From a virus, in the IMG/VR virus record IMGVR_UViG_3300045988_146774, positions 1 through 64,000 of that record: a stretch of 64,000 bases of DNA; one strand, given 5' to 3'. The position numbers and the translations under genes are program-made. This document shows positions 5,507 through 58,718 of the stretch, piece after piece. Every line of letters begins with the position of its first letter. The stretch's first letter is position 1. Under the pieces are notes generated by a model. It did not search any database. It worked only from the letters and a program-made list of their open reading frames with translations, and was not told where the DNA came from.

Positions 5507-5512
5507 TGTTCC

Positions 5513-10156: not shown

Positions 10157-10212
10157 ATTGCATTCTTCCCTTCAATTTCATGAAAACTTGGTTTCATTTG
10201 TTCTTAAATTTC

Positions 10213-10866: not shown

Positions 10867-10946
10867 TTATTATCACCTCAATATTATATTCTCTATTATA
10901 TCAGAAATGGAACTGCCTTACGACAATTCCATTATCTTTGAATCTA

Positions 10947-11339: not shown

Positions 11340-11372
11340 TTTACCTCCTCCTATGAAAAATTGTTTCATCAT

Positions 11373-11792: not shown

Positions 11793-11849
11793 CTATTAAC
11801 AACCTCCATTCAATGTTTTATATAATAAAAATCATTAAAGATTAATGGA

Positions 11850-12023
11850 CTATAAAAGTCCATTTCTCTTTAATATTGCCTTTGCCAACCGTTCATTAAT
11901 CTCTTTGTGTCTTGGGATAGTTTCTTTAACATTTCCTTTTATATAAATATCATGGCTCCCACCATGTCTTTCGAAAATAAATCCGCCATCTTCAAGTTTC
12001 TTTACTAAATCATTTCTCTTCAC
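11850..12023 (-). CDS. hicA: HicA-family mRNA interferase toxin (57 aa, GTG start)
   Basis: Not in the ORF track. Hand translation: VKRNDLVKKLEDGGFIFERHGGSHDIYIKGNVKETIPRHKEINERLAKAILKRNGLL. SD AGAGGTGA upstream; lies directly upstream of hicB. Confidence 0.8.
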   Translation of the reverse strand: MKRNDLVKKLEDGGFIFERHGGSHDIYIKGNVKETIPRHKEINERLAKAILKRNGLL

Positions 12024-12095
12024 GTATAAGTATCACCTCTTTCTACTTATATTATACACAATTAGTGTGTAATGTCAATATTTTTAATACACACT

Positions 12096-12215
12096 TTATA
12101 CACAACGGTTACAAATCCATTTATAATCTCTTTCCGTCATAACAGAAACATTACATCCAATCATAACAGTAATCATTTTCTTTCCATTTGTCTCAAATCT
12201 ACTAATTACTTTCAT
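12096..12215 (-). CDS. small hypothetical protein (39 aa)
   Basis: Below cutoff. SD GGAGG lies 7 nt before ATG 12215. Confidence 0.4.
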   Translation of the reverse strand: MKVISRFETNGKKMITVMIGCNVSVMTERDYKWICNRCV

Positions 12216-12218
12216 ATC

Positions 12219-13560: not shown

Positions 13561-13617
13561 ACATCTTAGACAGATAAATTCCGATGACTTCTTTGGATTC
13601 CCTTTCTTTTGCTCATG

Positions 13618-13686
13618 CTATTCACCTTTAATAATTCCGACCATTCCAAATCCGATGATAAGCAATACTATTCCAAATCCAAACAT
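13618..13686 (-). CDS. micro-ORF, 22-aa hydrophobic peptide
   Basis: MFGFGIVLLIIGFGMVGIIKGE; SD GGTGATAAGA-ATG. Confidence 0.4.
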   Translation of the reverse strand: MFGFGIVLLIIGFGMVGIIKGE

Positions 13687-39416: not shown

Positions 39417-42029
39417 ATGAGTGAATTTGGAATTAAAATAAAGAATATTGAAGCAAGCACTTTATATGAATATAACAATGGTGTCAGAGATCATTATGAA
39501 TACAAAGATGCAATGTTTACCAACAGTCTATTTAGTGATTATCTAAAAGATAACGGATTAAAAGTATGGAAAGAAGAATCTACTAGAGATATTATCTGTT
39601 TAGAATTTAATTTTGGATCAAGATCGTATGAAGAAGAAATTAATCATCTAAAAAAAGTCGCAATTAAAGCTCGTACAGAATATAAATTAGCCAAATCTTT
39701 TAAATATCAAACGCAAATTCAAAAAAAGAAAAATAAGCGTCAAAAATTATCCCAATTATTTAGAGAAGCACAATTGAATAAAGAAAAATATCTAAAGCAT
39801 ACCAAAGAAGATATTCGCACTATTTTTTATAACGATGGTGTAAATGTGGAATATATAACTAGAAAAAAGAATGGGGATATTATAAAACGAGAAACCATTC
39901 ACTACAAAATGTTATATAGAAGCACTGGAAAAGCAAAAAAAGGTTCCTGTATGTTTATATGCGATAGGCTATATAAAAAAGCTATAAAATTCTTATACAT
40001 GGGTATTAAATTGCCAAAGAAGAATTCTCCTATCGTAGAAATTAGTGCCTATGCCCCTCTTATATCTAGTGCAATAGTCGGAAAGGTAAAAATCAATCCT
40101 AAAAATATTTTAATATTAAAAGATGTCGATCGTTATTTTGATACAAAAGTTGTTGCAGTTAAAACAGATGAGAACCGGCAATGTTATGCGGAGCATATTG
40201 ATAATTATAAATTAAAAAATACTCTATTCGACGGACAAGCTCTTATAGATAGTAGTATTTTTCCAGAATGGGGAAATGGATATATCTTATTAAGACATCA
40301 TTTTTGTAAAATGGCTGCATTTAGTACGAACATCCAACAATTTTTTAAAGATTATTTTGGAGATGACTATTACTCTGCTACTGTCAAAGATATGTTTGGG
40401 AATGAACATTATGTAAAAGATATAGAATTGATAACCACAGATAATGCAATGAAGTGGTTAAAATTTGATATATCTTATGAGTATTGGTGCGAAAAAGTTT
40501 ATGAGAATAATTGCATGTTTGGAATTGTTAAGACAGCTCATGAAAGTAAACTCGGGGAAGTTCAAAGAATGAGTTATCAAATGGTCAATTGTTTAGATGA
40601 ATCTATTATGGAGAATGTAGTCAAGGAAAGTGTTGATTATGTTGAAATGCTTAAACAGAATGATGACGAATTTTTAAAGTATCTTGAAAAAAATAAGAAT
40701 TTTTCAAATGATTACGAAGTTTTAATTGCATTATGTGAGCAGAATCGAGATTTCTTAAGAAGCTCATATTTTAGAAGAAGAAAAAGAAAAATTATTGAAA
40801 ATTATGTATTAAATATGAAAAGTGGAAAACTAATACAGAATGCAGAAAATCTTGTCGTAGTTGGTTCTCCATATGCTATGCTCTTATATGCAGCAACGGG
40901 TGAGGAAAATTCTGTTGATGATGATGACACATTTTTTGTAGAATCTGGAACAGTTCAATGTTATACAGAGAGATTTAATAGTGGTGAGCATCTTGCGTTT
41001 TTTAGAAGTCCATTCAATAGTCAAAACAATTTAACATATTTACATAATACTTATCATAAAAAGTTAGATAAATATTTCAATCTTGGACGACAGTGTATTG
41101 CAATTAATATGAATGGGACTGATGCACAAGATAGAAACAATGGGATGGACATGGATTCTGATAGCGGGTATACAACCAATCAACCGGATATAGTTCAACA
41201 TGCAAAAAAATGTTATTCAGACCATCCTACTATTGTAAATCTTATTCCTAGAGATTCAAAAAAATATAATCGATCTATGGATGAATATGCATTGATTGAT
41301 AATAACCTTGCGAATTCACAATTAGATATAGGGTTGTCTAGTAATCTAGCACAAATAGCTAGAACATATTCTTGCAATTTCAATGACGAAAAATATGTAG
41401 ATTACGTTTGTATTTTAAGTGTTTTGGCTCAGGTCGCAATAGACAATGCCAAGCGTCGCTTTGATATTGATCTTGGAGATGAAATAAAACGAATCCAAAA
41501 AGATTTAAATATAAAAACAAACCTTTATCCGTCATTTTGGCTACTTATTAAAAAGAATTTCAAAAAAGACAATATAAATGAAGAATTAAAATGCCCTATG
41601 AATTATTTATATAATTTAGATTTGTCAGAGTTCCATAATTCGACTTCTACTCTTCCAATGTCACATTTTTTCAATAAGTTTGAAATGTCAAATAATATTA
41701 GAACATGTAGAAAAGTTGAAGATCTGATTGCAAAATATTCTTTAAGTCTTTATGATATTAATTCTGGAGATTCTGAAGATAATGATTATTTGTTATTGCG
41801 AAAAGATTTTGATAACTTGATTTCAGATATCCAAAAAATAAAAATATCCAAAAATTATCTAGGATTATTTTCGTGGATGATTGATCGAGCATTTAAAATT
41901 TTGCCAGGAAGTTTAAGAAATCAAAAAAGTATATCTTCTGTTCTAAATAAAAACAAACCCCTTCTTTTAAAAACTTTATACGAAGTAAATTCGTCAAATT
42001 TACTAAAATGTTTCTCAAAAAACTGTTAA
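39417..42029 (+). CDS. putative YonO/RdRP-like single-subunit (two-barrel) RNA polymerase
   Basis: 870 aa. FFRSPFNSQNNL is followed c. 45 aa later by CIAINMNG..NNGMDMDSDSG (Asp578/580/582, nt 41148-41162), mirroring the R-x-P ... G-x-D-x-D-G-D catalytic loop of RdRP/YonO-type polymerases. No search was run. Confidence 0.55.
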   Translation: MSEFGIKIKNIEASTLYEYNNGVRDHYEYKDAMFTNSLFSDYLKDNGLKVWKEESTRDIICLEFNFGSRSYEEEINHLKKVAIKARTEYKLAKSFKYQTQIQKKKNKRQKLSQLFREAQLNKEKYLKHTKEDIRTIFYNDGVNVEYITRKKNGDIIKRETIHYKMLYRSTGKAKKGSCMFICDRLYKKAIKFLYMGIKLPKKNSPIVEISAYAPLISSAIVGKVKINPKNILILKDVDRYFDTKVVAVKTDENRQCYAEHIDNYKLKNTLFDGQALIDSSIFPEWGNGYILLRHHFCKMAAFSTNIQQFFKDYFGDDYYSATVKDMFGNEHYVKDIELITTDNAMKWLKFDISYEYWCEKVYENNCMFGIVKTAHESKLGEVQRMSYQMVNCLDESIMENVVKESVDYVEMLKQNDDEFLKYLEKNKNFSNDYEVLIALCEQNRDFLRSSYFRRRKRKIIENYVLNMKSGKLIQNAENLVVVGSPYAMLLYAATGEENSVDDDDTFFVESGTVQCYTERFNSGEHLAFFRSPFNSQNNLTYLHNTYHKKLDKYFNLGRQCIAINMNGTDAQDRNNGMDMDSDSGYTTNQPDIVQHAKKCYSDHPTIVNLIPRDSKKYNRSMDEYALIDNNLANSQLDIGLSSNLAQIARTYSCNFNDEKYVDYVCILSVLAQVAIDNAKRRFDIDLGDEIKRIQKDLNIKTNLYPSFWLLIKKNFKKDNINEELKCPMNYLYNLDLSEFHNSTSTLPMSHFFNKFEMSNNIRTCRKVEDLIAKYSLSLYDINSGDSEDNDYLLLRKDFDNLISDIQKIKISKNYLGLFSWMIDRAFKILPGSLRNQKSISSVLNKNKPLLLKTLYEVNSSNLLKCFSKNC

Positions 42030-42317
42030 AAATGCTGTTTTTTGTGCAGACTTAATTTATTTGATATGTAAAAAATGCCCATTTTTCAACGTTTTTCAGC
42101 AATATGCTAATGCCCCCTTATGAGGAGAAAGTGGGCAATGATGCTTGTCTAACATGTTCAAGAGTAAATTTGCGTACGAATTTCGTAATACCAACACAAT
42201 TATCCTCTCCGCTATTATTGCAAATGCGGAATATAAGTAAGCGACACGTGTATATTATTACTCCTTCATTGGAGAATATAGGGGGATGTTTTTCATCTCC
42301 CTACTAAGATTAATATA

Positions 42318-42350
42318 TTGGCGGTGGGTAAAACATCTACTGCCAATTTT
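42318..42350 (+). terminator. intrinsic terminator
   Basis: TTGGCGG-N15-CTGCCAA stem followed by TTTT. Confidence 0.55.
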
Positions 42351-42356
42351 CATATG

Positions 42357-42428
42357 CTGGCGGTAAAGGTTGGATCTTGGCGTGGCTCATAACCATGTAA
42401 AAACTCGGTTCAATTCCGGGGCTTCAGC
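42357..42428 (+). tRNA. degenerate tRNA-like sequence with CAU anticodon loop
   Basis: Good anticodon arm CGTGG-CTCATAA-CCATG and T-arm CTCGG-TTCAATT-CCGGG. The acceptor pairs only 5/7, the D-loop is short and there is an extra nt at position 26. Confidence 0.35.
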
Positions 42429-42437
42429 AACTTGTCT

Positions 42438-42510
42438 AGGGATATAGTTCAGTTGGTAGAACGCTTGATTTGGGATCAAGAGGTCGCACGTTCGAGTCGT
42501 GTTATTCCTA
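42438..42510 (+). tRNA. tRNA-Pro (UGG)
   Basis: Complete hand-folded cloverleaf: acceptor AGGGATA/TATTCCT, D-arm GTTC-AGTTGGTA-GAAC, anticodon arm CTTGA-TTTGGGA-TCAAG, T-arm GCACG-TTCGAGT-CGTGT. Confidence 0.85.
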
Positions 42511-42555
42511 TTACTCCTCTCCTATTTCGGAGAGAAAAATGTACGAAAGGAATGA

Positions 42556-42825
42556 ATTACTATTAAAGAAATTAGTAAAAATGATTTAAAAACTCTAGTT
42601 GAGCGTGGAATTATTGGAAGAACTCATGTTAGATCCAATAGTTCAATCGGTGGATATCATTCTTGTGGTTTTTATGATATTGAAAAGTATAAAGACGGGA
42701 AAAAGAAAGAAAAAGGTAATAAGAATTATCTAAAAACTATTTATGCTCATATTGGAGTAGGTATTACCAGAAATCATATCTATATTGAGGATAAATATGC
42801 TGATATGGTTAATGGAATCAAGTAA
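42556..42825 (+). CDS. protein-like ORF (c. 89 codons) with no canonical start codon
   Basis: Open frame ..ITIKEISKNDLKTLVERGIIGRTHVRSNSSIGGYHSCGFYDIEKYKDGKKK..IYAHIGVGITRNHIYIEDKYADMVNGIK. The only candidates are ATT codons after AAAGGAA, or the out-of-frame ATG at 42552. Confidence 0.3.
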   Translation: MTIKEISKNDLKTLVERGIIGRTHVRSNSSIGGYHSCGFYDIEKYKDGKKKEKGNKNYLKTIYAHIGVGITRNHIYIEDKYADMVNGIK

Positions 42826-42842
42826 ATAATACTTATAGAAAG

Positions 42843-44288
42843 GTGGTTAGTGCCATCGCTAAGAAAAAGAAAGAATCAATAAAGGTTTCATTTGTAGACT
42901 CACCTTCTTCGGAGGATGTTACAGGGAGCCTTATTTTTATATCTGCACCAAATCATAAAATTCTGGTAGATGCAGGATTACATCAAACAAATGATAGATA
43001 TGAAGATTTCTTGGTGAATAATCGAAAATATAAGGAGTTCAAACCAAAAGAAATTGATTATATTTTCCTGACCCATAATCATGCGGATCATTGCTTATTA
43101 TGCCCTAAACTTTATAAAGAAGGATGTAAAGCAAAAGTCATCGTTACAGAAGGGTCTTCTATCGTATTAAAAGATATGGCTGAAGATTGTGCAGAAATAA
43201 ATGAACGTGATGTTCTTATAATTAATAGTCAGAATGATAAAAATTATTCACCGTTATATGGATTAGATGACGTATTTAATATGATGAATTATGTATCAGA
43301 ATATGAATATGATAAGAAATTTTTCATTGATGATGAATTGTCATTTATGTTAATACCAAGTGGTCATTTGCTCGGGAGTTGTCAGGTTTTATTATTTTTA
43401 ACAGTGAATAATGTTACAAAATCCATTCTGATCACAGGCGATATTGGAAATAAAATAATTGAGAATAGGTTTGTTGGACATTATGAGCAGGTGAGGACAT
43501 GTGATTATGTAATTGCAGAGTCTACATATGGAGATAAACCAAAATTAAAGACAGGCAAAAAAGAGCGAAAAAATGATTTAGAAAAATTTAAATCTATAAT
43601 TGAGACACAGATTCATGAATTAAAAGGTCGTGTTGTAATCCCAAGCTTTGCACAATCAAGAATTCAGCAATTAGCTCTTATGATATATGAAATATATAAA
43701 GATGAAGAGTGGAAACCAAAAGTCTATATAGATTCTCCATTGTCGATTAAAATCTTCAAAGACTACGCTGAATGTTTGGTTGGTAAAGACAAAGAAGACT
43801 TTGACAAAATGTTAGAAAGTGGAATTTTTACTTTTGTGAAAGAACCAGAAGATAGTAAGGCTTTAGTGTCTAGTGATGAATCATGTTTAATTTTATCTAC
43901 AAGTGGTATGTGTCAAGTTGGAAGAATAAGACATCATTTAAAGAAATGTATTGTTGATCCAAATTCGACGGTATTATTTGTTGGATTTTCTACAGAGGGT
44001 TCGTTAGCTTCTCTGTTAAAAGACAATAAAAGGAGAAGCGTCACAATTGATCAAAAAGAATATTCATGTAGATGTTCTTCATATTCATTAAAATCAATGA
44101 GTGGACATGCGCCATTCTATCAGCTTGTAGAAAATTATACAGATATAAATTGTCAAAAAATTATATTACATCATGGGTCAGATCTTGCTAAAAAAACTTT
44201 AAAACCAGCCTTAGAAAAAGAACTGGAAAGAAAATGTAAATCAACAAGAGTTGTAATAGCAAACTCTAGCCTGAAATTTACACTCTAG
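42843..44288 (+). CDS. metallo-beta-lactamase-fold beta-CASP nuclease (RNase J/CPSF-like)
   Basis: HNHADH (HxHxDH), AESTYG, SGHL, and STSGMCQVGRIRHHLKK, typical of beta-CASP RNA-metabolising MBL proteins. GTG start. Confidence 0.85.
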   Translation: MVSAIAKKKKESIKVSFVDSPSSEDVTGSLIFISAPNHKILVDAGLHQTNDRYEDFLVNNRKYKEFKPKEIDYIFLTHNHADHCLLCPKLYKEGCKAKVIVTEGSSIVLKDMAEDCAEINERDVLIINSQNDKNYSPLYGLDDVFNMMNYVSEYEYDKKFFIDDELSFMLIPSGHLLGSCQVLLFLTVNNVTKSILITGDIGNKIIENRFVGHYEQVRTCDYVIAESTYGDKPKLKTGKKERKNDLEKFKSIIETQIHELKGRVVIPSFAQSRIQQLALMIYEIYKDEEWKPKVYIDSPLSIKIFKDYAECLVGKDKEDFDKMLESGIFTFVKEPEDSKALVSSDESCLILSTSGMCQVGRIRHHLKKCIVDPNSTVLFVGFSTEGSLASLLKDNKRRSVTIDQKEYSCRCSSYSLKSMSGHAPFYQLVENYTDINCQKIILHHGSDLAKKTLKPALEKELERKCKSTRVVIANSSLKFTL

Positions 44289-44300
44289 GAGTAGCTGCCT

Positions 44301-44552
44301 ATGAAAGATAAAAAGTTAATACCATATATATTCGGTCTTATAACTGGTGTCGTATTGTTACCGGTTACAGATGAATTATTAAATGTATTATACTCATGGA
44401 TTGAGGTTATGAAGATCAAACCATCTTCGATTATTGCAAAATGGAATGAAGAAGTCGCATCTAAAAGTGACGGGACTGAACAGACATTTGCAATAGGTTT
44501 TCAAGCACCTGATCCTGAATTAGAAGAATATTATGAAGACGAGGAAGAGTAA
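44301..44552 (+). CDS. small membrane protein
   Basis: SD AGGAG upstream. N-terminal TM LIPYIFGLITGVVLLPV and an acidic C-terminus. Confidence 0.6.
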   Translation: MKDKKLIPYIFGLITGVVLLPVTDELLNVLYSWIEVMKIKPSSIIAKWNEEVASKSDGTEQTFAIGFQAPDPELEEYYEDEEE

Positions 44553-44571
44553 TTACCACTCTTCTATTTTT
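44544..44571 (+). terminator. intrinsic terminator (ACTCTYC family)
   Basis: GAAGAGT-N7-ACTCTTC stem followed by TATTTTT. Confidence 0.6.
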
Positions 44572-44620
44572 GTATCCGAAATATCGGAAATTCAATGAAT
44601 TAAAAGGAGAAAAATAGATT

Positions 44621-44848
44621 ATGGCTACAAGTAAGCTTAGATTTACAAGAACTACAACAGATAAATTGACAGTAAAAGGTGGAGTGCTTTCTGAAGATTG
44701 TACTTCTATTTCATATACAGATGAGAATGATGTTGAGCAGGATATTAAAGTTGGAGATTTACTTTCAGCTTTTAAGAATGAGGTAATTGACTTTTCTGTA
44801 GCACTTAAAACAGACGAGGAGCTTGATGTTCCGGAATCCGAAGAATAA
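44621..44848 (+). CDS. hypothetical protein
   Basis: 75-aa ORF with SD AAGGAGA upstream. Confidence 0.6.
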   Translation: MATSKLRFTRTTTDKLTVKGGVLSEDCTSISYTDENDVEQDIKVGDLLSAFKNEVIDFSVALKTDEELDVPESEE

Positions 44849-44856
44849 GAAGGGAT

Positions 44857-46041
44857 GTGTTTGTTATAACTTCTTATAGACGTTTTAATGGAGAAACAGA
44901 CGAAGAGCTTATCTATCGAATCACAGGTGACAAGGATAAAATAGGTTCTTGGCAGGATGTGGCAGATATATTAAATGAGCTTCTTGGTACAGAATATACC
45001 GAATCAAAATTTAGAAAGCAGAGACAGGCATTTGATAAAATGCTCGCTGCGAATAGAAATAAATTCGTAAACGATTCTGCTCAGTTAGAAGAAATACGAT
45101 TAGCTCAGAGAGAACTAGAGCGTTCAAAGATACAATTTAGAGATGAACGCAGATCTTGGCAAAAACAGAATTATATGGATAGTCGTTTCGATGAAGTAAT
45201 GGATCTTCTTATTGAAAGACTTGATAACTTTGGAAAAACAGAGTTTAGAAGTTTTCCAAGACCTTTAATTGGAACAGGGAAATCAATGATTGTATGTTTG
45301 TCCGATTTACATATTGGTCAGACATTCCATTCCACATTTGGACAATTTGATTGTCAGATTGCTAAAGAACGATTGGATAAATACTTAAGTGAAGTAATTC
45401 AAATCGGCAAAATGAATATGGTTTCTTCAGTACATATTTTCTTGCTCGGAGACAACATTAGTAACTCCTTGCATAAGACAATTGAAGTTTCAAACAAAGA
45501 AAATGTTATTGATCAGCTTAAATTAAGTATTGAATATATCACATCATTTTGTCATGAACTTACGAAACATTTCGATGATGTTTACTTAGCTTCTGCTTCT
45601 GGGAACCACTCAAGATTACAGGCAAAGGATCTTGCACAGCACAGTGAACGTTTAGATGCATTTATTGCATGGGATGTGTGCAGAGTTCTTCAGCATATAG
45701 ATGGATTTCATTCATTGCTAGATTGCAGTATTGATGATGGAATTGCCAAAGTTGATATTTATGGGAAAGATTATCTTCTTATTCATGGAGATTATGATGC
45801 TCCTACTAAACAAGGGTATATGAATCTTGCGTCAATGTGTGGATTCTTCCCGGAGAATATTTTCTGTGGACATAAGCATTTTTGTATGTATAGTCAAGAA
45901 TCGAAATTCGTGCAAAGCGGAAGCCTTGCTGGTTCTGGATGTGATTATACAATCGAAAAAAGATTAAACGGAAAACCGTCACAAATGGTTTGCATTGTTG
46001 ACGAAACTGGATTACTTAATATTAGTCCAGTCATGTTATAA
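44857..46041 (+). CDS. calcineurin-like metallophosphoesterase with N-terminal helical extension
   Basis: Motifs CLSDLHIG, LLGDN, SGNHS, LIHGD and CGHKH appear in canonical order. GTG start. Confidence 0.8.
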   Translation: MFVITSYRRFNGETDEELIYRITGDKDKIGSWQDVADILNELLGTEYTESKFRKQRQAFDKMLAANRNKFVNDSAQLEEIRLAQRELERSKIQFRDERRSWQKQNYMDSRFDEVMDLLIERLDNFGKTEFRSFPRPLIGTGKSMIVCLSDLHIGQTFHSTFGQFDCQIAKERLDKYLSEVIQIGKMNMVSSVHIFLLGDNISNSLHKTIEVSNKENVIDQLKLSIEYITSFCHELTKHFDDVYLASASGNHSRLQAKDLAQHSERLDAFIAWDVCRVLQHIDGFHSLLDCSIDDGIAKVDIYGKDYLLIHGDYDAPTKQGYMNLASMCGFFPENIFCGHKHFCMYSQESKFVQSGSLAGSGCDYTIEKRLNGKPSQMVCIVDETGLLNISPVML

Positions 46042-46047
46042 AGTCGT

Positions 46048-46114
46048 ATAACAGCCCATACTACACCCGGTATAATTCAAACTCTCGTAAATCGGAATTG
46101 TATGGGCTGTTATT
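46048..46114 (+). other. long perfect hairpin (14-bp stem, 39-nt loop)
   Basis: ATAACAGCCCATAC (46048-61) pairs with GTATGGGCTGTTAT (46101-14). The loop contains TATAAT. Confidence 0.6.
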
Positions 46115-46205
46115 ATATATTTCTTGAGAAGAGATGCGACCATTAAACAGGCGTGTACTCTTCTATTTTTGTAAAAAATGATATGGAACGAAAGGAATTA
46201 ATTAA

Positions 46206-46484
46206 ATGAATAAAGTAGAATTAACAAAATCAGTTGCTACAAGAACCGGAGCAACGCAGAAAGATGCTGCTGTGTATGTAGATGCAGTTATCGAATCTAT
46301 TAAAGATGGTATGATTGAGGATGGAAAGGTTCAGATTGTTGGATTTGGAACTTTTGAAGTAAAAGAAAGAGCTGAACGTGAAGGTCGCAACCCACAGACA
46401 GGGGAAACAATGAAGATCGCAGCTTGTAAAACACCAAAATTCAAAGCTGGTAAAGCACTTAAGGATGCCGTTAACGAAGCATAA
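46206..46484 (+). CDS. hup: HU/IHF-family DNA-binding protein
   Basis: MNKVELTKSVA..., GFGTFEVKERAEREGRNPQTGETMKIAACKTPKFKAGKALKDAV is a textbook HU sequence. Confidence 0.92.
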   Translation: MNKVELTKSVATRTGATQKDAAVYVDAVIESIKDGMIEDGKVQIVGFGTFEVKERAEREGRNPQTGETMKIAACKTPKFKAGKALKDAVNEA

Positions 46485-46493
46485 TAAATTGGA

Positions 46494-47084
46494 GTGAATT
46501 ATTTGGATACTTTTACTTTTGAAAGCATTGAGGAATTTTGCGAAATGTTAGATGACGTACTTACAGATTCTACAGAAACCATTTCAGTTGTGGCGAAATA
46601 TAATGATGCAAAAGAAATTATTAAAGAACTTGTTTTATATGGATATGATTTTGGATATATTCACTTAGATTATGAATATCCAAACGAATATGAAGTTATG
46701 ATTATTAACGATCGTATTTATTGCGATAAATTAAAAAGAGATGGAGAATATATTACTTCTTGGGCAACTGCAATTTATGCAATGGAAGATGTAAATTCTA
46801 AGTGCATTTTAAGATCTTATCCTGACGCTAAAACAAAAATTCTTGTTCAGATTGAACCGGATGACGAAGAGTTAGGTGGTCATGATGATGACATTGACTG
46901 TGATATGTGTGAACACAAAGATGATTGTGATGTTAGATTCGTCAAAAACGAAGATGGTGAAGTACATGGTATGACTGTCTCAAGTTCTGATGGAGATAGA
47001 TATATTTCACATAGTATCTATTGTACAGATGCATTTGATCAGAATGAGATGCTAGATTTTCTTGCAGATATTTTTGGATTGTAA
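46494..47084 (+). CDS. hypothetical acidic protein
   Basis: 196-aa ORF with an uncertain start (GTG 46494 or TTG 46503). A terminator follows. Confidence 0.6.
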   Translation: MNYLDTFTFESIEEFCEMLDDVLTDSTETISVVAKYNDAKEIIKELVLYGYDFGYIHLDYEYPNEYEVMIINDRIYCDKLKRDGEYITSWATAIYAMEDVNSKCILRSYPDAKTKILVQIEPDDEELGGHDDDIDCDMCEHKDDCDVRFVKNEDGEVHGMTVSSSDGDRYISHSIYCTDAFDQNEMLDFLADIFGL

Positions 47085-47117
47085 GATAAATATTATTAGA
47101 AATATAGATTTTCTTAG

Positions 47118-47150
47118 GCATTATGAGCGTAAAAACTCATAGTGCTTTTT
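47118..47150 (+). terminator. intrinsic terminator
   Basis: GCATTATGAG-CGTAAAAA-CTCATAGTGC stem followed by TTTTT. Confidence 0.65.
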
Positions 47151-47505
47151 GACGTGAAGTTTTCTTTTTGTGATTACACTCATGTTTTACCTTCCTTTCT
47201 TAGAACCTGTAGGCGTAAAAACTTATGGGTTCTTTTCTTATGCAGCATAAATCCATGAGGTTTGGAACCTACCTGCTAAGTAGTGTGTACGTTAATTCGT
47301 ATTTGCTTCGAGTGCAATGTGCTGCGTTTTAATATTCTCTGTGGTGTTGTTTAGAGAATATATGAGTGTACTCATGATTGGTGTCGTAACTGATTGTGGG
47401 GAATTATGGAGAGATACGAAAGAAGTCATGAGCTTTCGGATAAGTGTAACCTCATTCGCACTTCTCTCCTGTTTTTTATTGAATGGGGAGAAATGAGGAA
47501 AGTTT

Positions 47506-48684
47506 ATGGGAAAACCAAGATCAATAAATTTTGATGTTAAAGATTATGATTATTGGGTTAATGAATACATACAGAAAAGTGAATTATATGGCAAACCGAT
47601 TTCTAATATGTATTTAAGAAAAGATGAATTTAATCTACCAGATTCACGATGGTATGTAAAAAATTGTCCGGATAAAACTATAACGAGTTGGTCTGAATTT
47701 ATAGATTGGTGTGGATTCATTTCAAAAGGCAAAACACCATCTAAAGAAAAAATGACGCATTTAATATATAAAATGCAAAATGAAATTGGTAGACCATTAA
47801 TGTATGATGACTTTAGAGGAATTGGTTGTTATCACCCTCCAATAAAATTTATTAATTTGTATTGGGGAACAATTAATAATATGAAGAAAGAACTTGGTTT
47901 AGAAATAATCAAAGATTCTATGTTGGATAGAAGTCTTTCAAAAGAAGAGTTTGATGCAATGATCATAGATATATGCTCTTATGTAAAAAGTGATGGTAGA
48001 AATTTTATTACAACTTCTGAAATAGACAATAATAATAATTGGCTTAATGCAGATTCTCTAAGAAAAACTTCTAAAAAATATTATAACTGTGATCTTCAAG
48101 AATTATTAAGCGAATACGATGTATCACTTGGCAAACAGGGTCGTGGAACAATTTTTAATTTTGAAGATGGAGAACATGTGACAAGTCAGTTTGAGTATAT
48201 GTTTTCAAAATATTTAAGAGAATTCGGATTGAAATATACGAAGGATTATCAGAGAGATGTTGATTATTCTTCGTTTATTTCTAAATATAATGGACGAATG
48301 AATTGTGATTATGTAATAAATATAAAAGAGAAGAAAATTTATATTGAAATAGCAGGAATTATTGAAGCTTATAAATCATATTTCTTTTCTAATAAAGCAA
48401 TAAAAGCAAGCAAATCTAAAGAGAATTATCGTCAAAAATTATTACAAAAGCAGTCTATGCTAAAAGAAAATAATCTTAATTATTTCATATTATTCCCATG
48501 TGATTTAACAAAAGAAAATGTATATGAAATATTAAATAATGATTCTGTTATGTTACGAAAAAATATAGAATCGTTTATTAAAAATAATATTGATTGGCAA
48601 AGGGTTTCTGAACGCGGAGAATTAAAGTATTTAGATGAAATTAAATGGGGACGCAATGTCATTGATTATAAAGAGGTAGTTTAG
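47506..48684 (+). CDS. putative nuclease: homing-endonuclease-associated-type N-terminal repeats plus C-terminal PD-(D/E)xK-like module
   Basis: Repeated L.....F..P....Y......SW.EF....G-type units (..RWYVKNCPDKTITSWSEFIDWCGF.., ..PIKFINLYWGTINNMKKELGL..). The C-terminus MNCDYVINIKEKKIYIEIAG resembles a D...(D/E)xK core. Confidence 0.5.
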   Translation: MGKPRSINFDVKDYDYWVNEYIQKSELYGKPISNMYLRKDEFNLPDSRWYVKNCPDKTITSWSEFIDWCGFISKGKTPSKEKMTHLIYKMQNEIGRPLMYDDFRGIGCYHPPIKFINLYWGTINNMKKELGLEIIKDSMLDRSLSKEEFDAMIIDICSYVKSDGRNFITTSEIDNNNNWLNADSLRKTSKKYYNCDLQELLSEYDVSLGKQGRGTIFNFEDGEHVTSQFEYMFSKYLREFGLKYTKDYQRDVDYSSFISKYNGRMNCDYVINIKEKKIYIEIAGIIEAYKSYFFSNKAIKASKSKENYRQKLLQKQSMLKENNLNYFILFPCDLTKENVYEILNNDSVMLRKNIESFIKNNIDWQRVSERGELKYLDEIKWGRNVIDYKEVV

Positions 48685-48708
48685 TTAATTGTACTACTTC
48701 TTTTTATT

Positions 48709-49680
48709 TTGAAAGGAAGTGGAAAGTTGGCAGAACGAAGCAAAAGAATACAGATATATGATAAAGAAAAAATGGAGCATATAAATCCAGAAACATTAAA
48801 ATTATTTCAAAAATATCAGATAGATATGTCTATTAGAGATTTATCAGAAAATAGCATACAGGCATATAATGCAGACTTAAAGCAGTGGTTCATCTTTATG
48901 TATGATAATCAATTTAATCTATCTGTTCTTGAAGCTACAGAAGATGATATTACTGAATATTATTATTGGCGAAAGCAAAAAGGCAATAATGTAAATCGCC
49001 AAAAAAGGGTCATGGCTTCAATCTCTGCATTTTATAAATTTCTCAGAAAAAAGAAACTTGTTGTAGAATCTCCTGTGGAATTTATTGATAGACCGAAAGC
49101 AGGACAACCGATTGCTGTACAAACATATCTTACAAAAGAACAAGTGCAATTAATGCGTGAAAAACTCGAAGAATATGGAGATATTCAATTGCAGTTATAT
49201 GCTTTTCTCTCACTAACTACAATGGCAAGAGTTAATGCAATTGCAAGTCTTAAATGGGATCAAGTTGATTTTGATGAAAGAATATGTAGTAACGTATTAG
49301 AAAAAGAAGGAAAAATTGTAGAATTAAGTTTCAGCAAAGAAACTAAAGAATATATGGAAAAATTGATTCAATATCGAAAAGAAAATGGTATTGATGATCA
49401 CGGTAGGTTATTTATTACTCCATATGTCACAGAAGACAAACCGATAAGAAACAGTACATTAAATGATTGGTGTAAAAAGATTGGAAATATGATAGGCGTT
49501 CCGACACTGCACCCACACGATTTTCGCCACAGCTATGCGACACTTTTAAAGAACGAGGGAGTTAGTCTTGAAGATGTATCTACTATGCTCAATCATTCTG
49601 GCACTGATGTCACGAAGAAGTTCTATATTAAGGTTGATACATCAAAAGTACGAAAACTTAAAGATAGTATTGATATTTAA
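48709..49680 (+). CDS. tyrosine recombinase / integrase (XerC/D-like)
   Basis: N-terminal SAM-like core-binding region, ARVNAIASLKWDQVDF (Arg I), HPHDFRHSYATLL (HxxR) and LNHSGTDVTKKFYIKV (His...Tyr). Confidence 0.88.
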   Translation: MKGSGKLAERSKRIQIYDKEKMEHINPETLKLFQKYQIDMSIRDLSENSIQAYNADLKQWFIFMYDNQFNLSVLEATEDDITEYYYWRKQKGNNVNRQKRVMASISAFYKFLRKKKLVVESPVEFIDRPKAGQPIAVQTYLTKEQVQLMREKLEEYGDIQLQLYAFLSLTTMARVNAIASLKWDQVDFDERICSNVLEKEGKIVELSFSKETKEYMEKLIQYRKENGIDDHGRLFITPYVTEDKPIRNSTLNDWCKKIGNMIGVPTLHPHDFRHSYATLLKNEGVSLEDVSTMLNHSGTDVTKKFYIKVDTSKVRKLKDSIDI

Positions 49681-49980
49681 ATAATTTGAAAAATATTTCG
49701 CTGATGGTGGAATCAAAAAGGTTGAACAAAAGTCCCTTTCTGATTTATAAACAACAATCAAGTCATAATATTCAGGTTGTAAGGATAGCATCATATGGTG
49801 TTCTAGTTAGAGAATATTATATTGAACAAAAATCTTCGAGATTTTTACTAGGGATTGTGCTTGCACAAAACTAGATTTGAGCTTATGTTATGACTGCTAT
49901 GCGGTATGGATTTGCTGCGATCCATAAATAAAGCAGAGCGATAAAGCGGTGCTTCACTACCATTAAATGTGAACCTTTAT

Positions 49981-50005
49981 GGAGAGTGTACTACTCTCCT
50001 ATTTT
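49981..50005 (+). terminator. hairpin plus T-tract (ACTCTYC family) abutting tRNA-Tyr
   Basis: GGAGAGT-GTACT-ACTCTCC stem followed by TATTTT. The tRNA starts at the next base. Confidence 0.5.
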
Positions 50006-50088
50006 GGGTAGGTATGCCTAGAGGCGAGGGCAAGGCTCTGTAAAAGCCCCACAAAGAAACACCGCAGGTTCGACTCCTGCTCTGCCCA
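50006..50088 (+). tRNA. tRNA-Tyr (GUA), long-variable-region type
   Basis: Acceptor GGGTAGG/TCTGCCC, anticodon loop CTGTAAA (identical to E. coli tRNA-Tyr), T-arm GCAGG-TTCGACT-CCTGC. The variable region is unpaired and there is an A-C mismatch at 27:43. Confidence 0.7.
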
Positions 50089-50092
50089 CTAT

Positions 50093-50182
50093 GACGCATT
50101 AATCCTAAATGGTAAGGAATTAGTCTTGAAAACTAATAGTAGCCGAGTAATCGGTGTCTCTGTTCGAGTCAGAGATGCGTCG
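50093..50182 (+). tRNA. tRNA-Ser (UGA), class II
   Basis: Perfect acceptor GACGCAT/ATGCGTC, anticodon arm TTAGT-CTTGAAA-ACTAA, variable arm GCCGA-GTAA-TCGGT, T-arm CTCTG-TTCGAGT-CAGAG. Confidence 0.82.
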
Positions 50183-50343
50183 TTTTTGTCATTAAAATGA
50201 CGTAAGAATGATGATAACATTCTGACTTTGGTAGCTCGTCACTGCTAATTAAAAATAAAATATTATAGTAAAGAAATAGGCATTTCATACTTTGTGTGTG
50301 GAATGGCTTTTTATTATGGAATAAATGAAAGGAAGTGATTATT

Positions 50344-51402
50344 ATGGCTAATTTACGACAATCAAAGACTGATGAAGAAATTAAAAAGCTAACTGTGAAT
50401 AATGTAAAAAAAGCATATCATGAATTGGCTATGGATTATAATCATCTTCTTGATTTAGATTATGTCTACTGTCCACATTGCGGAAAATGGAAATCTTCAA
50501 AAACTTTTTATACATCGAAGGAAACTAAAAGTGGCATAGAACATTTTGCTTGTAAAAGTTGCATTTTAGATATGTGTACAGATGTTGATAAAAATGGAAG
50601 TCGTACTGACAATAAACAAAAAACAATTGATACTTTTAGAAGATTGGATTGGAAATTTTCGGATGCTGATTATGAATCGCAATTAGATTCTTTATCAGAA
50701 GGAACAGGGGAAAAAATTAGAGCGACCGCTGCTCAACAGCTTATTGTTATGGTTCGTTCATTACCTCAATATCAGAATAAACATTGGAGTGATTCTGAAT
50801 TTGCTATTGATGATGTAGAAAATAACACAGAGGAAAATGTACGTATTGTGCAAAAGACATTACGAGCTGCAAAAAAAAGATTTGGAACAGATTATAATGA
50901 TGAAGAGTTAATGTTCTTAGAAAATGAATATCAAGATTGGATTTCAAGATATGATTGTTCCCAAAAAGCACAAGAAGAAACTTTTCAAAATTTATCAATT
51001 TTAAAATTGATGAAACGTAACGCTATAAGGAAAGGTGCTTCAACAAAAGACCTAGATTATTCCTACCAACAATGGCTTGATACTGGAAACCTCAAACCAA
51101 AACAAAATACTCTTGATACTTTTTCAGATGCACAGACAATGGGAACATTAATTCAAAAATATGAAGAAACACGCCCTCTTCCTGACGTAGATCCAGAACT
51201 TGCAGATGTAGATAAAATTGGTACATATATCGATGCGTTTTATAGAGGACATGCCTCAAAAATGTTAGGTTTAAAAAATAGATTTTCGAATATATACGAA
51301 AAAGTAATGGCTAAATATGCTGTAAAACAACCATCTTATGATGAAGAAACTGATAGTGAAATCTTATTTGATAAGATTTTTGGAAATAAAGAAGATGAAT
51401 AA
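50344..51402 (+). CDS. hypothetical protein upstream of terL (possible small terminase; zinc-ribbon CPHCG...CKSC)
   Basis: ATG 50344 follows AAAGGAAG. The function is inferred only from its position directly before the large terminase. Confidence 0.45.
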   Translation: MANLRQSKTDEEIKKLTVNNVKKAYHELAMDYNHLLDLDYVYCPHCGKWKSSKTFYTSKETKSGIEHFACKSCILDMCTDVDKNGSRTDNKQKTIDTFRRLDWKFSDADYESQLDSLSEGTGEKIRATAAQQLIVMVRSLPQYQNKHWSDSEFAIDDVENNTEENVRIVQKTLRAAKKRFGTDYNDEELMFLENEYQDWISRYDCSQKAQEETFQNLSILKLMKRNAIRKGASTKDLDYSYQQWLDTGNLKPKQNTLDTFSDAQTMGTLIQKYEETRPLPDVDPELADVDKIGTYIDAFYRGHASKMLGLKNRFSNIYEKVMAKYAVKQPSYDEETDSEILFDKIFGNKEDE

Positions 51403-51404
51403 TT

Positions 51405-53180
51405 ATGGCTACTTCAAAGAAAGATAAAAAGAAATCATTACAAGAAGTATATCATGAAAAATCTGAACGTGTTTTAGAGGGTGTTGCTTACTGGGCTTCA
51501 TTTTATAGAAAAAATCCGCAAAGATTTGTACTTGAATATTTAAATGTGAAATTAAAGTTATTCCAAAAAATATTGATATACATGATGATGATAAGCACGA
51601 ATTTCATGTATATAGCCAGCCGTGGTTCTGGTAAAACATGGCTAACTTCTTTATATTGTGTTGTGCGCTGCATCTTGTACCCTGGGACAAAAATCTGTGT
51701 AGCTTCTGGGTACAAATCCCAATCGCTAGAGGTTATTCAAAAGATCAATGATGATTTTATGAAAAATTATGGTTGGGGTTCTGCTAATCTTCGATCTGAA
51801 ATATTGGAAATATCTACTTCTATTAATAATGCCCATGTTGATTTCCGAAATGGTAGTTGGATAAAAATTGTTAGTTCTAATGACTCAGCTCGCCATAACC
51901 GTGCAACGCTCATAGTTGTGGACGAATTTAGGATGGTTGATTTAAATACAATAAATACAGTTCTTAGAAAATTCTTAACAGCACCTAGACATCCTGGGTA
52001 TCTTGACAATCCCAAATATGAACATTTGCAAGAACGAAATATTGAAATGTATATGAGTTCCGCTTGGTATAAATCCCATTGGAGTTATGAAAAATTAAAA
52101 GCTTATTATGCAAATATGTTAGATGATACTAAACGTTACTTTTGTTGTGGACTTCCTTATAATTTAGCTATAAAAGAAGGTCTTTTGTCTCGTGAGCAAG
52201 TTGAAGATGAAATGTCTGAAGCTGACTTTGATCCAACCGCATTTAAAATGGAAATGGGTGCTGAATGGTTTGGGGATACGGATGGAGCTTTTTTCAAATT
52301 CGATGATATTTCTCCAAGAAGAAAAATTAAGAATTCTTTTTATCCACTTGAAATTTATCGAAATCATAAAATAAAAATCCCAGAATTGGTAACTAATGAA
52401 CGAAGAATATTGTCTGTTGACGTTGCATTATTAGCAAGCAAAAAACATAACAATGACGCAGCTGCATTAATTATAAATTCTGCTATTCCTACAGATAAAA
52501 ATGATTATATATCAAATATAGTTTATATAGAAACACATGAAGGTATGACAACTGATGAGTTGGGAATTCTTACAATGCGTTTATTCTATCAATTTAAATG
52601 CACTGATTTAGTTTTGGATACAAATGGGCAAGGTATTGGTGTTTATGATTTTATTATAAAACCTCAGTACGATGCAGATTATGGCGTTACTTATGATGCA
52701 ATGACATGTATTAATGATGATAATATGGCAGATAGATGTAAAGTCAGAGGTGCAAATAAAGTTATATGGTCTGTAAAAGCAACTGCTGATTTTAATAATA
52801 AGGCAGCATTGGCTCTTAGAGCAGGTTTTCAGAATGGTTCTATTAATCTTTTGACATCAGAATTTGAGGCTGAAGAATTAGTGAAGAAAATTAGGGGATA
52901 TTCAAAAATGTCGTCTATGGAACAATCTATGCTTAAACTTCCATATATACAGACTTCTTTGATGGTAAACGAATTGATTAATCTGGATCACGAAATAAAA
53001 GGTACAAATATTAGAATCATTGAAAGACCAGGCATGAGAAAAGACCGTTTTTCTGCATTGGAGTATAATTTTAAAATATGTCAAGATTTGGCGTTAAAAT
53101 TAAAACCAAAAAACCAGTCATCACAAGATATTTCAAAACTTTTCTCTATACGAGCACCTAAAAAGGTAACAAGATTTTAA
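51405..53180 (+). CDS. terL: terminase large subunit
   Basis: Walker A-like ASRGSGKTW and Walker B LIVVDEF, followed by a C-terminal nuclease-sized domain. A portal-sized gene comes next. Confidence 0.85.
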   Translation: MATSKKDKKKSLQEVYHEKSERVLEGVAYWASFYRKNPQRFVLEYLNVKLKLFQKILIYMMMISTNFMYIASRGSGKTWLTSLYCVVRCILYPGTKICVASGYKSQSLEVIQKINDDFMKNYGWGSANLRSEILEISTSINNAHVDFRNGSWIKIVSSNDSARHNRATLIVVDEFRMVDLNTINTVLRKFLTAPRHPGYLDNPKYEHLQERNIEMYMSSAWYKSHWSYEKLKAYYANMLDDTKRYFCCGLPYNLAIKEGLLSREQVEDEMSEADFDPTAFKMEMGAEWFGDTDGAFFKFDDISPRRKIKNSFYPLEIYRNHKIKIPELVTNERRILSVDVALLASKKHNNDAAALIINSAIPTDKNDYISNIVYIETHEGMTTDELGILTMRLFYQFKCTDLVLDTNGQGIGVYDFIIKPQYDADYGVTYDAMTCINDDNMADRCKVRGANKVIWSVKATADFNNKAALALRAGFQNGSINLLTSEFEAEELVKKIRGYSKMSSMEQSMLKLPYIQTSLMVNELINLDHEIKGTNIRIIERPGMRKDRFSALEYNFKICQDLALKLKPKNQSSQDISKLFSIRAPKKVTRF

Positions 53181-53200
53181 GAAAGGAGGTATGGCAAAAC

Positions 53201-54769
53201 TTGAGTGAAAAAACAAAAGAACCTATTGTACAAAAGGTTTACACAAAAACAGATGAATCTGGCTATGAAGTAGAACGAAAACGAGCGCAAAAAATAAATT
53301 TTGCTAAGTTTCAGGAATTGTTGCAGAGGAATGTTACAAAAACTGTTTCTAAAACTTATACTCAATACACGAGAGATTTATTAGATCAATATGTACAATC
53401 TCCTCTTAATAATATAGATAATATTCGTGAAGTTTCTCGTTTCTTAACAAGAGTATCAATGCTTTATAAGCAGATGATATCTTATTTCTCTACTATGCCT
53501 CTTTATACATATAATATCACCCCCTTGGCAGATTATACTAAAGATTTTGATGTAGAAAAACAACTTAAAAATTATGAAAAGACATTAAAAATATTTCATC
53601 ATTTTAATATGGCAAAAGAATTGCAAAATGTGATTTCTAATACAATACGTGACGGAATGTATGTTGGATGGATGAGTGGTGACGACGAAAATGGAATTTT
53701 TCTTATGCCTTTAGATGTACAATATTGTCGTATTTATGGAAAAACTCAAGAAGGGGAATGGATAACATATTTTGATGCAGCATTTTTTGATAAATCAAAT
53801 AACAAAGATTTTATTAAAGGTGTGAACAATGATGGTGTTGGTGTGTGGGATCAAGTTTTTATTGATGGATATAATCAATATAAAACTGAAGGTAGAAACT
53901 ATGAATTTTTCCGTCTCCCACCAGAAAATACACTAACACTTATAGCAAGTACCGATGATGAATTTTATGTACCTCTTCCGTATTTCTTACCTTTATTCAA
54001 ATCCTTATTGAATCTTCTCGATACAGAAAATCTTGTTGTTGCGAAAGAAGAATTGCAGAATTACAAGTTAATTCTAAATAAAATTCCGTTACTTGATTCT
54101 GAAAACGTAGATGATTTTGCAATTAGTTTAGAACTTGTAAATCAGTTTGATCAAATGATTAAACAAATTCTTCCAGATTTAGTTGGTTGGGGAACAACAC
54201 CTTACGATTTAAGTCAAGTCATAGATTTCGAGAAATCTACTTCCGCTACTGATACAGATAACTTAAATAAAGCAATGAATAATCTTTTCGCAAATGCTGG
54301 AATTAATAAACTTATTGTAAGTTCTGGCGATTCGAGTAATGCGAATGGTATCAAATATTCAAATGCGAATGATCTTGGAAAGATTTCTGTGTACATAAGA
54401 CGAATCGAATCTTGGTTAAATTACTGGATTAAAAATCATATTACAGATGGCGTTTATTTACAGATTTTTGATCAAACACAATATAATCGAGATGATTATA
54501 TAAGTAGAATGAAGGATGCGAGTGCATTTGGTATTGGAAAAATGGATTATATGTGTGCATTAGGTGATGATCCATATGTTGCATACAACAAACTTCGGTT
54601 TGACACATTGGTTTTAAATATCAATCAATATGCTGTTCCATTTAATTCTTCATATACTCAATCATCTGATAATACAGGTGGTCATCCTGAGATTCCAGAT
54701 GATCAGTTGTCAGATGAAGGACAAGCAACTAGAGATTCTGGAAAAAATGAAGATAAAGGTAATAAATAA
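53201..54769 (+). CDS. portal protein (by size and position)
   Basis: 522-aa ORF immediately after terL. TTG start sits 11 nt after GGAGG. Confidence 0.65.
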   Translation: MSEKTKEPIVQKVYTKTDESGYEVERKRAQKINFAKFQELLQRNVTKTVSKTYTQYTRDLLDQYVQSPLNNIDNIREVSRFLTRVSMLYKQMISYFSTMPLYTYNITPLADYTKDFDVEKQLKNYEKTLKIFHHFNMAKELQNVISNTIRDGMYVGWMSGDDENGIFLMPLDVQYCRIYGKTQEGEWITYFDAAFFDKSNNKDFIKGVNNDGVGVWDQVFIDGYNQYKTEGRNYEFFRLPPENTLTLIASTDDEFYVPLPYFLPLFKSLLNLLDTENLVVAKEELQNYKLILNKIPLLDSENVDDFAISLELVNQFDQMIKQILPDLVGWGTTPYDLSQVIDFEKSTSATDTDNLNKAMNNLFANAGINKLIVSSGDSSNANGIKYSNANDLGKISVYIRRIESWLNYWIKNHITDGVYLQIFDQTQYNRDDYISRMKDASAFGIGKMDYMCALGDDPYVAYNKLRFDTLVLNINQYAVPFNSSYTQSSDNTGGHPEIPDDQLSDEGQATRDSGKNEDKGNK

Positions 54770-58688: not shown

Positions 58689-58718
58689 GGAGAGTGGTTT
58701 TACTACTCTCCTATTTTA
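58689..58718 (+). terminator. intrinsic terminator (ACTCTYC family)
   Basis: GGAGAGT-N9-ACTCTCC stem followed by TATTTTA. Confidence 0.6.

Follow-up and report, generated by a model that had tools for sequence, protein, structure and literature searches.

The subject of this study is a gene in a 64,000-nucleotide (nt) stretch of viral DNA, positions 1 to 64,000 of the IMG/VR record IMGVR_UViG_3300045988_146774 (henceforth 'the window'). We conclude that this gene, located at 39417..42029 on the + strand (stop codon included), very probably encodes a YonO-family single-polypeptide DNA-dependent RNA polymerase (RNAP) of a large temperate phage, with a late-gene role proposed by analogy. The open reading frame (ORF) starts with ATG, codes for 870 amino acids (aa) and is the longest in the window, the next longest having 591 aa; a putative ribosome-binding site, AGGA, lies 6 nt 5' of the ATG, and the gene is intact. 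Its assignment as a single-subunit two-barrel RNAP draws on the ORF list, the match to the profile phrog_8308, profile alignment with hhalign and a Foldseek search with an AlphaFold2 (AF2) model. An initial annotation, made from the DNA letters, had also picked out this 870-aa ORF as the largest in the window, had recognised no T7-type polymerase motifs in it and had proposed a YonO-like single-subunit two-barrel RNAP; profile homology, the predicted fold and the conserved catalytic residues speak in favour of that proposal. Pfam finds no T7-type polymerase domain either: RNA_pol (right-hand, Pol I-fold) is absent from the protein, and none of the Foldseek matches has that fold.

The presence of YonO-like proteins in the phages and genomes of Firmicutes was recognised in 2003-2010 (PMC2919709), and YonO of SPbeta was characterised in 2017 (PMC5467207). 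It is a strictly DNA-dependent RNAP that forms stable elongation complexes, pauses little and does not proofread (Forrest et al. 2017, PMC5467207). YonO transcribes the SPbeta late operon, and its Asp triad is essential (PMC5467207): the 3D>3N mutant is inactive (PMC5467207). The YonO promoter was left undefined in 2017 (PMC5467207), and we found no later paper defining the promoter specificity of YonO-type enzymes.

The window protein matches phrog_8308 of the PHROGs collection with E 1.2e-89 over residues 6-827. While no function is listed for phrog_8308, SPbeta YonO (taken from NC_001884) matches the whole profile (E 0, 1220 bits, positions 2-847 of 847), and phrog_8308 is therefore the YonO family. 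Direct BLASTP comparison of the two proteins is weak (21% identity, E 0.043) and still pairs FFRSP with ILRSP and MDMDSD with FDNDGD. We compiled an alignment and profile of 69 relatives (A2), which was the basis of the hhalign, invariance and AF2 runs. Aligned to YonO by hhalign, the A2 profile scores a probability of 99.3% and E 2.7e-20 over 508 columns, with RSP opposite RSP and DMDSD opposite DNDGD; together with the shared phrog_8308 this provides the profile similarity to YonO that the initial annotation had predicted. The two proteins are of similar size (839 aa for YonO, 870 aa here) and have the same residue order – D, R-x4-K, R-S-P and then D-x-D-x-D – but differ in the loop (DNDGD in YonO, DMDSD here), are ~20% identical, and only YonO has a C-terminal Cys-rich tail.

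The diversity of relatives was drawn from a phmmer search of 1.84 billion cluster representatives (50%-identity clusters), which returned 1290 clusters at E <= 1e-3, 599 of them at E <= 1e-30; the polymerase family is therefore large. A second homologue search with a 5-sequence profile found the same close relatives and added nothing. No Pfam model matches the window protein, and the RNA-dependent RNA polymerase (RdRP) model PF05183 is not reached at E <= 1; YonO, too, has no Pfam RdRP match, and NCBIfam holds no model for either protein. When ten A2 members were scanned against Pfam individually, one of them (P0248, 31% identical to the window protein) matched PF05183 with 34.5 bits, the gathering cut-off being 23.8. 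There is therefore a sequence link to the eukaryotic-type RdRPs, and it is a transitive one: PF05183, which the initial annotation had named for comparison, is matched by the relative and not by the protein itself. Neither the single protein nor the profile of the family found anything relevant among PDB sequences; the informative PDB comparison was that of folds.

All two-barrel RNAPs have eight residues invariant: four Asp, two Arg, one Lys and one Pro (PMC2919709). In QDE-1 these universal residues are D709, R738, K743, R962, P964, D1007, D1009 and D1011 (Ruprich-Robert and Thuriaux, PMC2919709). Judged by pattern, spacing and the whole-chain fold match, their predicted counterparts in the window protein are D272, R293, K298, R530, P532, D578, D580 and D582, all of which are invariant in A2. 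Both the order and the spacing agree with the published list (PMC2919709): R-x4-K, R-x-P and then 45-48 residues to DxDxD. The codons of D272, R293 and K298, in the predicted active site of the first (beta-like) barrel and equated with QDE-1 D709, R738 and K743, fall within 40230..40310 (+). The R-x-P strand of the putative second (beta-prime-like) barrel, R530-S531-P532, is encoded at 41004..41012 (+) and would correspond to RSP of YonO and R962/P964 of QDE-1; residues 528-539 read FFRSPFNSQNNL. The predicted catalytic metal-binding loop D578-M-D580-S-D582, opposite DNDGD of YonO, is encoded at 41148..41162 (+), and residues 560-584 read CIAINMNGTDAQDRNNGMDMDSDSG. The initial annotation had placed the loop codons at the same position, which our arithmetic (39417+577*3) reproduces for D578-D582, and had described an R-x-P strand with DxDxD 45-50 residues further on; R530 and D578 are indeed 48 residues apart.

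Conservation was counted in a MAFFT alignment of the window protein, YonO, the homologue from Enterocloster phage PMBT24 and 150 representatives of 50%-identity clusters. In the first barrel, D272 is present in 138/138 sequences, R293 in 139/139 and K298 in 137/138; in the second barrel, R530 is present in 135/135 and P532 in 134/134, with Ser or Asn at position 531 between them. The loop aspartates are similarly conserved (D578 in 124/127, D580 in 128/130 and D582 in 128/129), in agreement with their invariance in A2 and with what the initial annotation had anticipated for homologues. It had erred in treating the Ser of the DMDSD loop as a variant. Position 581 is Ser in 98 of 129 sequences, Gly in 16 and Thr in 7, so the closest 150 clusters usually have DxDSD, Ser being the clade majority. 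YonO and PMBT24 have Gly in the loop, and two ~27%-identical gut-phage homologues have DFDSD and DYDSD.

Could the protein be a relic that has lost its catalytic activity, or have some structural or other function and have kept the fold? The very low identity to YonO and the Gly-to-Ser exchange in the metal loop would fit such a scenario. We find it scarcely credible: relatives at 27-89% identity all retain the eight catalytic residues, the Ser majority in the 1290-cluster family indicates purifying selection on a working site, and homing introns target the loop codons in relatives, which is typical of essential conserved sites.

These insertions are a recurrent feature of the family; L numbers denote individual related loci. 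Many cluster representatives are fragments that start or end at query residues 576-584. In the Coprococcus locus L014, the polymerase gene is broken by 1.2 kb (11731-12926), placed exactly between residues 577 and 578, that contain a group I intron core (Rfam RF00028, 51.6 bits) and an ORF that, as read from its sequence, codes for a putative GIY-YIG-like homing endonuclease. In L004 (MT837385) the gene is interrupted at residues 576/577 and again, by a second group I intron (RF00028, 77 bits), at 671/672, the two interruptions spanning 4276-4996 and 5285-5560. The gene of phage c-st (L006) is split near residue 580, between CST179 and CST177, by an inserted ORF; the window gene, in contrast, is whole, with no intron. 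As the breaks fall at the catalytic-loop codons, many of the family 'proteins' in databases are N- or C-terminal halves. The L014 polymerase gene also shifts frame near residue 465 (11395-11401, between the ORFs 10001-11401 and 11398-11736), which could be due to a sequencing error, a pseudogene or programmed frameshifting.

The AF2 model computed on A2 has a mean predicted local distance difference test score (pLDDT) of 91.7 and a predicted template modelling score (pTM) of 0.87. In the Foldseek search of the PDB, ranks 1-19 are all maize or Arabidopsis RDR2 or fungal QDE-1, with E 1.4e-13 to 6.8e-10, template modelling (TM) scores of 0.42-0.53 and 735-1013 aligned columns (for example, RDR2 7w82 with E 1.4e-13, and 7rqs with TM 0.53). 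Ranks 20-23 are the RNAPs of Thermus phages P74-26 (gp62) and P23-45 (gp64), with E 2e-5 to 3e-4. After rank 23 every PDB match has E > 0.6, and no unrelated fold appears below 0.6; from rank 29 onward there are local, ~88-residue, barrel-only matches to Pol II Rpb1 with E > 1. Foldseek found no extended beta-prime/Rpb1 similarity, with NADFDGD and a trigger loop, beyond the barrel, and the family profile has no PDB sequence match. Among the predicted viral structures of BFVD the top match is a phage 'RNA dependent RNA polymerase' (E 1.3e-51, TM 0.72), with the P23-45 and crAss-like phage polymerases lower down. Judged by the whole-chain Foldseek match, the modelled protein has the fold of two double-psi beta-barrels in one chain. 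The significant matches are two-barrel polymerases exclusively, as the initial annotation had foreseen, and since no primase, helicase, tail or other fold competes, its proposal stands. Directly after the catalytic barrel the model has a long helix (residues 621-654, 41277..41378, +; assigned by DSSP) with the invariant G639 (125/125 in the 150-representative alignment) and the near-invariant N643 (118/125); from its position, this predicted helix is possibly the equivalent of the bridge helix.

QDE-1 (2j7n, 5fsw, 7y7*) and RDR2 (7w82, 7rqs) share with the window protein the single-chain two-barrel architecture and the eight active-site residues, but they are ~10% identical to it and have Gly in the loop where it has Ser. 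That RDR2 and QDE-1 lead the Foldseek matches would also fit a primarily RNA-templated RdRP of their kind, one that makes double-stranded or antisense RNA and not mRNA. PMBT24 and BFVD relatives carry the name RNA-dependent RNA polymerase, the relative P0248 matches Pfam RdRP, and QDE-1, as stated in PMC9508822, has both DNA-dependent and RNA-dependent RNA polymerase activity. We nevertheless judge this alternative improbable. YonO, the sole characterised member of the family, has a strong preference for DNA templates over RNA ones, and late mRNA synthesis requires it (PMC5467207); the window gene heads the late-gene block of a double-stranded DNA phage; and the 'RdRP' names were most likely copied from the name of the Pfam family rather than derived from experiments. 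The favoured reading, a YonO-like transcriptase, makes the window protein a DNA-phage enzyme that is expected to work on DNA templates like YonO, unlike QDE-1 and RDR2. The non-virion RNAPs of the Thermus phages P23-45 (gp64) and P74-26 (gp62; structures 8f72 and 8f5m, PMC10770324) are likewise phage single-subunit two-barrel RNAPs with a DxDxD loop, but these ~590-aa proteins belong to another family, have TM 0.25-0.30 to the window protein and transcribe early genes.

The genes around the polymerase add to this picture. Among the small genes of a minus-strand block at 1.4-33 kb are those for a C5 methylase and a recombinase as well as an anti-repressor-like gene. After a divergent gap, a plus-strand block opens with two anti-repressor-like genes, the polymerase, tRNA-Met, tRNA-Pro and a beta-CASP nuclease, continues with a YonJ-like exonuclease, a YonN-like HU protein, a tyrosine recombinase and two more tRNAs, and ends with a YonG-like protein, a YonF-like terminase, the portal and further structural genes. 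The YonJ-like exonuclease is encoded at 44857..46041 (+; phrog_284 E 2.5e-55; BLASTP to SPbeta YonJ E 3e-15) and the YonN-like HU-type DNA-binding protein at 46206..46484 (+; Pfam PF00216, Bac_DNA_binding, E 5e-33; tblastn with yonN 54%, E 1e-26). The latter lies ~4.2 kb from the polymerase gene, much as the initial annotation had located an HU-like gene 4 kb downstream, and the linkage of yonN (HU) and yonO that it had mentioned is real in SPbeta and occurs in PMBT24 and c-st as well. The late (packaging) module starts at 50335..54769 (+), with the YonG-like protein, the YonF-like large terminase and the portal, as identified by tblastn to SPbeta (yonG 29%, E 4e-36; yonF 47%, E 1e-162) and by PHROG matches for terminase and portal. 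The window thus has in common with SPbeta the HU gene, the YonJ-like exonuclease and the co-oriented terminase/portal block.

Two phages provide further points of comparison: c-st (CST179/CST177; tblastn E 6e-12) and PMBT24 (tblastn E 1e-16) encode members of the same family at 23-26% identity. The c-st homologue is already labelled a YonO homologue in its GenBank record, and the PMBT24 homologue, with Gly in the loop, matches phrog_8308 at 2e-95. In both phages an HU gene lies downstream. Given the comparable layout and the polymerase-HU linkage in PMBT24 and c-st, we infer that the window enzyme may transcribe the downstream late block from DNA.

The mechanism that we propose is as follows. 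The active site would form between two double-psi beta-barrels of a single chain, the first of which would give D272, R293 and K298, and the second R530, P532 and the Mg2+-binding loop D578-x-D580-S-D582. The polymerase would, by analogy with SPbeta YonO, be made from an early or middle transcript and would then processively transcribe the co-oriented downstream tRNAs, nuclease genes, HU, terminase, portal and structural genes, and late expression would thereby be independent of the host polymerase. At the level of sequence and model, we establish homology to YonO, a two-barrel fold and conservation of the catalytic residues. DNA-templated RNA synthesis by the window protein is what we infer from YonO; late-gene specificity and the identity of the promoter are likewise suggested by analogy, the backing for the late role being synteny.

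Several points count against this interpretation. Pairwise identity to YonO is only ~20%, with a BLASTP E of 0.043, and the protein itself falls short of Pfam RdRP. The proposed correspondence to the QDE-1 residues comes from pattern and spacing. The biochemical evidence for the family comes from YonO, and the closest solved structures are those of enzymes that also use RNA templates. The gene order is unlike that of SPbeta, with the beta-CASP nuclease and tRNAs between the polymerase and the YonJ/HU genes. Finally, our promoter search gave no promoter: in the ~90 nt between the stop codon and the conserved RNA described below there is no conserved sigma-A-type -35/-10 pair or promoter-like block, and this stretch contains variable A-run/T-run hairpins and a semi-conserved AAAA..GTAAAATCAAGGGTTTT that the window does not share.

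An active two-barrel polymerase could also serve some other purpose, such as making replication primers or transcribing just the non-coding RNA and the tRNA cluster next to its gene. Directly downstream, most relatives have tRNAs and a conserved structured RNA, and the genes that come next are for nucleases and HU rather than structural proteins, which is compatible with this. We regard such a role as very improbable, as the same-strand synteny with the YonO-dependent late operon of SPbeta (YonJ, YonN, YonG, YonF) argues for late transcription and nothing ties YonO-type enzymes to priming.

The most novel thing that we observed is this RNA. The DNA 3' of the polymerase stop codon, aligned across seven genome loci, contains a non-coding block that is conserved and has apparently compensating stems. 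In the window, the motif occupies 42114..42252 (+), begins 85 nt 3' of the stop codon and comprises helices P1, P1a and P2 followed by a conserved AUAnAAAUAnGG tail. A covariance model with three helices (R1) was built from 18 seed sequences, the window sequence being outside the seed, and was searched against 1.1 Mb from 94 sources on both strands. It returned 63 matches, all on the + strand, one per locus and each after a YonO-like gene, mostly ~85-110 nt past the end of that gene with few exceptions (for example, 801 nt in L184). The window motif scores 54.3 bits (E 1e-8); further instances are in L008-L014 and 50+ viral loci (such as L195 7910-7992 and L148 6706-6790), and R1 has no match in SPbeta, PMBT24, c-st, L005 or L007. 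tRNAs follow the motif in most of the related loci.

In the alignment of the motif (40 distinct rows), 89.9% of cells are paired as compared to 71.6% in shuffles, with 0/500 shuffles reaching the observed value, and both partners change in 14/14 pairs. Covariation scores 0.444, versus 0.167 for shuffled alignments and 0.08-0.12 with slid partners. The alignment was fitted to the model and is thus biased toward structure; the slid controls and the compensatory variants in the raw sequences argue that the covariation is real. The internal loop between P1 and P1a has GAA opposite AGUA, which we take to be the sarcin-ricin/loop-E consensus.

The association with YonO-like genes also holds in the reverse direction. 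A pattern for the 3' half of the motif, run over all viral contigs, gave 67 matches, and in 53 of the 63 with enough upstream sequence a same-strand YonO-like gene ends a median of 127 nt before the match. Nine of the ten exceptions are unrecognised by R1 and are therefore chance matches, so that 53/54 true, testable instances in the viral contigs are linked to a YonO-like gene. For the 5' arm, a degenerate pattern of 17 nt was abandoned as too unspecific, with at least 120 mostly unrelated viral matches; as anchoring of the motif by regular expressions failed, the covariance model was used in its place. The 67-aa ORF at 42104-42307 that overlaps the motif was rejected as a gene, since the region varies in length by ~60 nt among relatives and the base pairing is kept.

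Rfam 15 finds only tRNAs, whether 41900-51000 is searched at E <= 0.1 or the entire window at gathering thresholds. ROOL, RAGATH-18 and DUF3800-VIII RNAs resemble the window motif in lying downstream of YonO-like genes near tRNA or HU genes, but the motif has its own three-helix consensus and no Rfam 15 match at E <= 0.1. L004 has a ROOL RNA at 8424-9021 (271 bits) and a RAGATH-18 at 10421-10481, and c-st has a RAGATH-18 at 13581-13641, just upstream of the HU gene. While SPbeta, a Bacillus phage as opposed to the Lachnospiraceae phage of the window, is without the motif, it has instead a DUF3800-VIII RNA in the yonN-yonK gap (L003 9409-9474, - strand). Forrest et al. placed the YonO start site and an unannotated RNA in this same gap (PMC5467207). 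Neither c-st nor PMBT24 has the window motif.

We tentatively suggest, while considering it doubtful, that the motif represents an RNA family which has not been described before and acts in concert with the YonO-type polymerase. One possibility is that the 5' leader of a polymerase-dependent late transcript is marked or formed by the motif, by analogy with P_YonO and the non-coding RNA of SPbeta; alternatively, it might bind the polymerase and regulate its synthesis or specificity. It may be a leader, a 3' untranslated region element or a separate small RNA. If the suggested partnership is true, the motif and the DNA just upstream of it would be the first comparative handle on recognition by YonO-type enzymes.

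The fold of the gap at 42100-42356 is better than that of shuffled sequences (z = -3.3), and the last element of the gap before tRNA-Met is a terminator-like hairpin: a 13-bp stem and T-run at 42317..42355 (+), between the motif and the tRNA, found by consensus scan and minimum free energy fold and amounting to a pattern match only. The tRNA-Met (CAT) and tRNA-Pro (TGG) themselves lie 3' of the motif at 42356..42511 (+; ARAGORN, with an Rfam tRNA match for tRNA-Pro). In many relatives a pseudoknot-like element, GCCU-[x]-AGGC-UUnAUAU-[x'], was seen by eye after the motif, the x/x' arms varying by locus; examples from short-insert loci are L162 (~6735-6765), L010 (~7815-7843) and L148 (~6795-6825). 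The window does not have the element in this form.

A repeated intergenic 16-mer, TACT[A/C]CTCTCCTATTT, occurs on the + strand exactly at 42512-42527, 49989-50004 and 58701-58716, and as near-copies with 2-3 mismatches at 44554-44569 and 47459-47474 (both +); with up to 3 mismatches there are 7 matches versus 1.6 expected. At 44543, 49981 and 58686 the 16-mer is the 3' arm of a GGAGAG/CTCTCC hairpin that is followed by a T-run. Its 12-nt core is present in 1/14 loci examined (the distant L005). The initial annotation had suggested that repeated non-coding motifs could be promoters or terminators of this polymerase. We dropped the 16-mer as a polymerase-specific signal, as it is not kept in relatives; the simplest reading is that of similar intrinsic terminators.

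The beta-CASP nuclease, a 481-aa metallo-beta-lactamase/beta-CASP protein (42843-44288, +; Pfam Beta-Casp E 2e-24; phrog_36352 E 1e-94), is encoded after the polymerase/tRNA region and ahead of the YonJ-like exonuclease. It has no SPbeta counterpart (tblastn, first 100 kb of the record, E 1e-3); judging by its sequence and its place beside a tRNA cluster and a phage polymerase, a role in RNA processing is conceivable. At the left edge of the window, an IS256/Mutator-family transposase (60-1323, +; Pfam PF00872 E 2e-49 and 4e-66) is split into two overlapping ORFs and is therefore probably frameshifted; it coincides with a higher G+C content (0.39 versus ~0.31).

As to the source of the DNA, integrases and anti-repressors are present in the window, and contigs with identical or near-identical polymerase proteins are often 150-195 kb long. 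Relatives at 64-86% identity come from Lachnospiraceae/Clostridiales genomes and metagenome-assembled genomes (Coprococcus, Waltera, Acetatifactor, Lachnoclostridium); one of them lies within a 421-kb Coprococcus ammoniilyticus contig and is therefore a prophage. When 12 kb of the window were compared with phage records by megablast, no DNA-level match came up. The source is temperate, SPbeta-like and large (roughly 150-190 kb), a phage or prophage of gut Lachnospiraceae.

As a further member of a known family, the polymerase gene will not surprise the specialist. What had been an unannotated 'hypothetical protein' nevertheless becomes a confident call, made from sequence and model: a gut Lachnospiraceae phage that probably has its own minimal two-barrel RNAP. 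The YonO family emerges as large, with its 1290 clusters, and as invisible to Pfam and NCBIfam; its evolutionary interest is that it may model the single-chain ancestor of cellular RNAPs. The dozens of orthologous loci and the linked RNA motif are material for the question of promoter specificity, and one of these loci (L014) is in a named, cultured-strain genome, that of Coprococcus ammoniilyticus H1_22.

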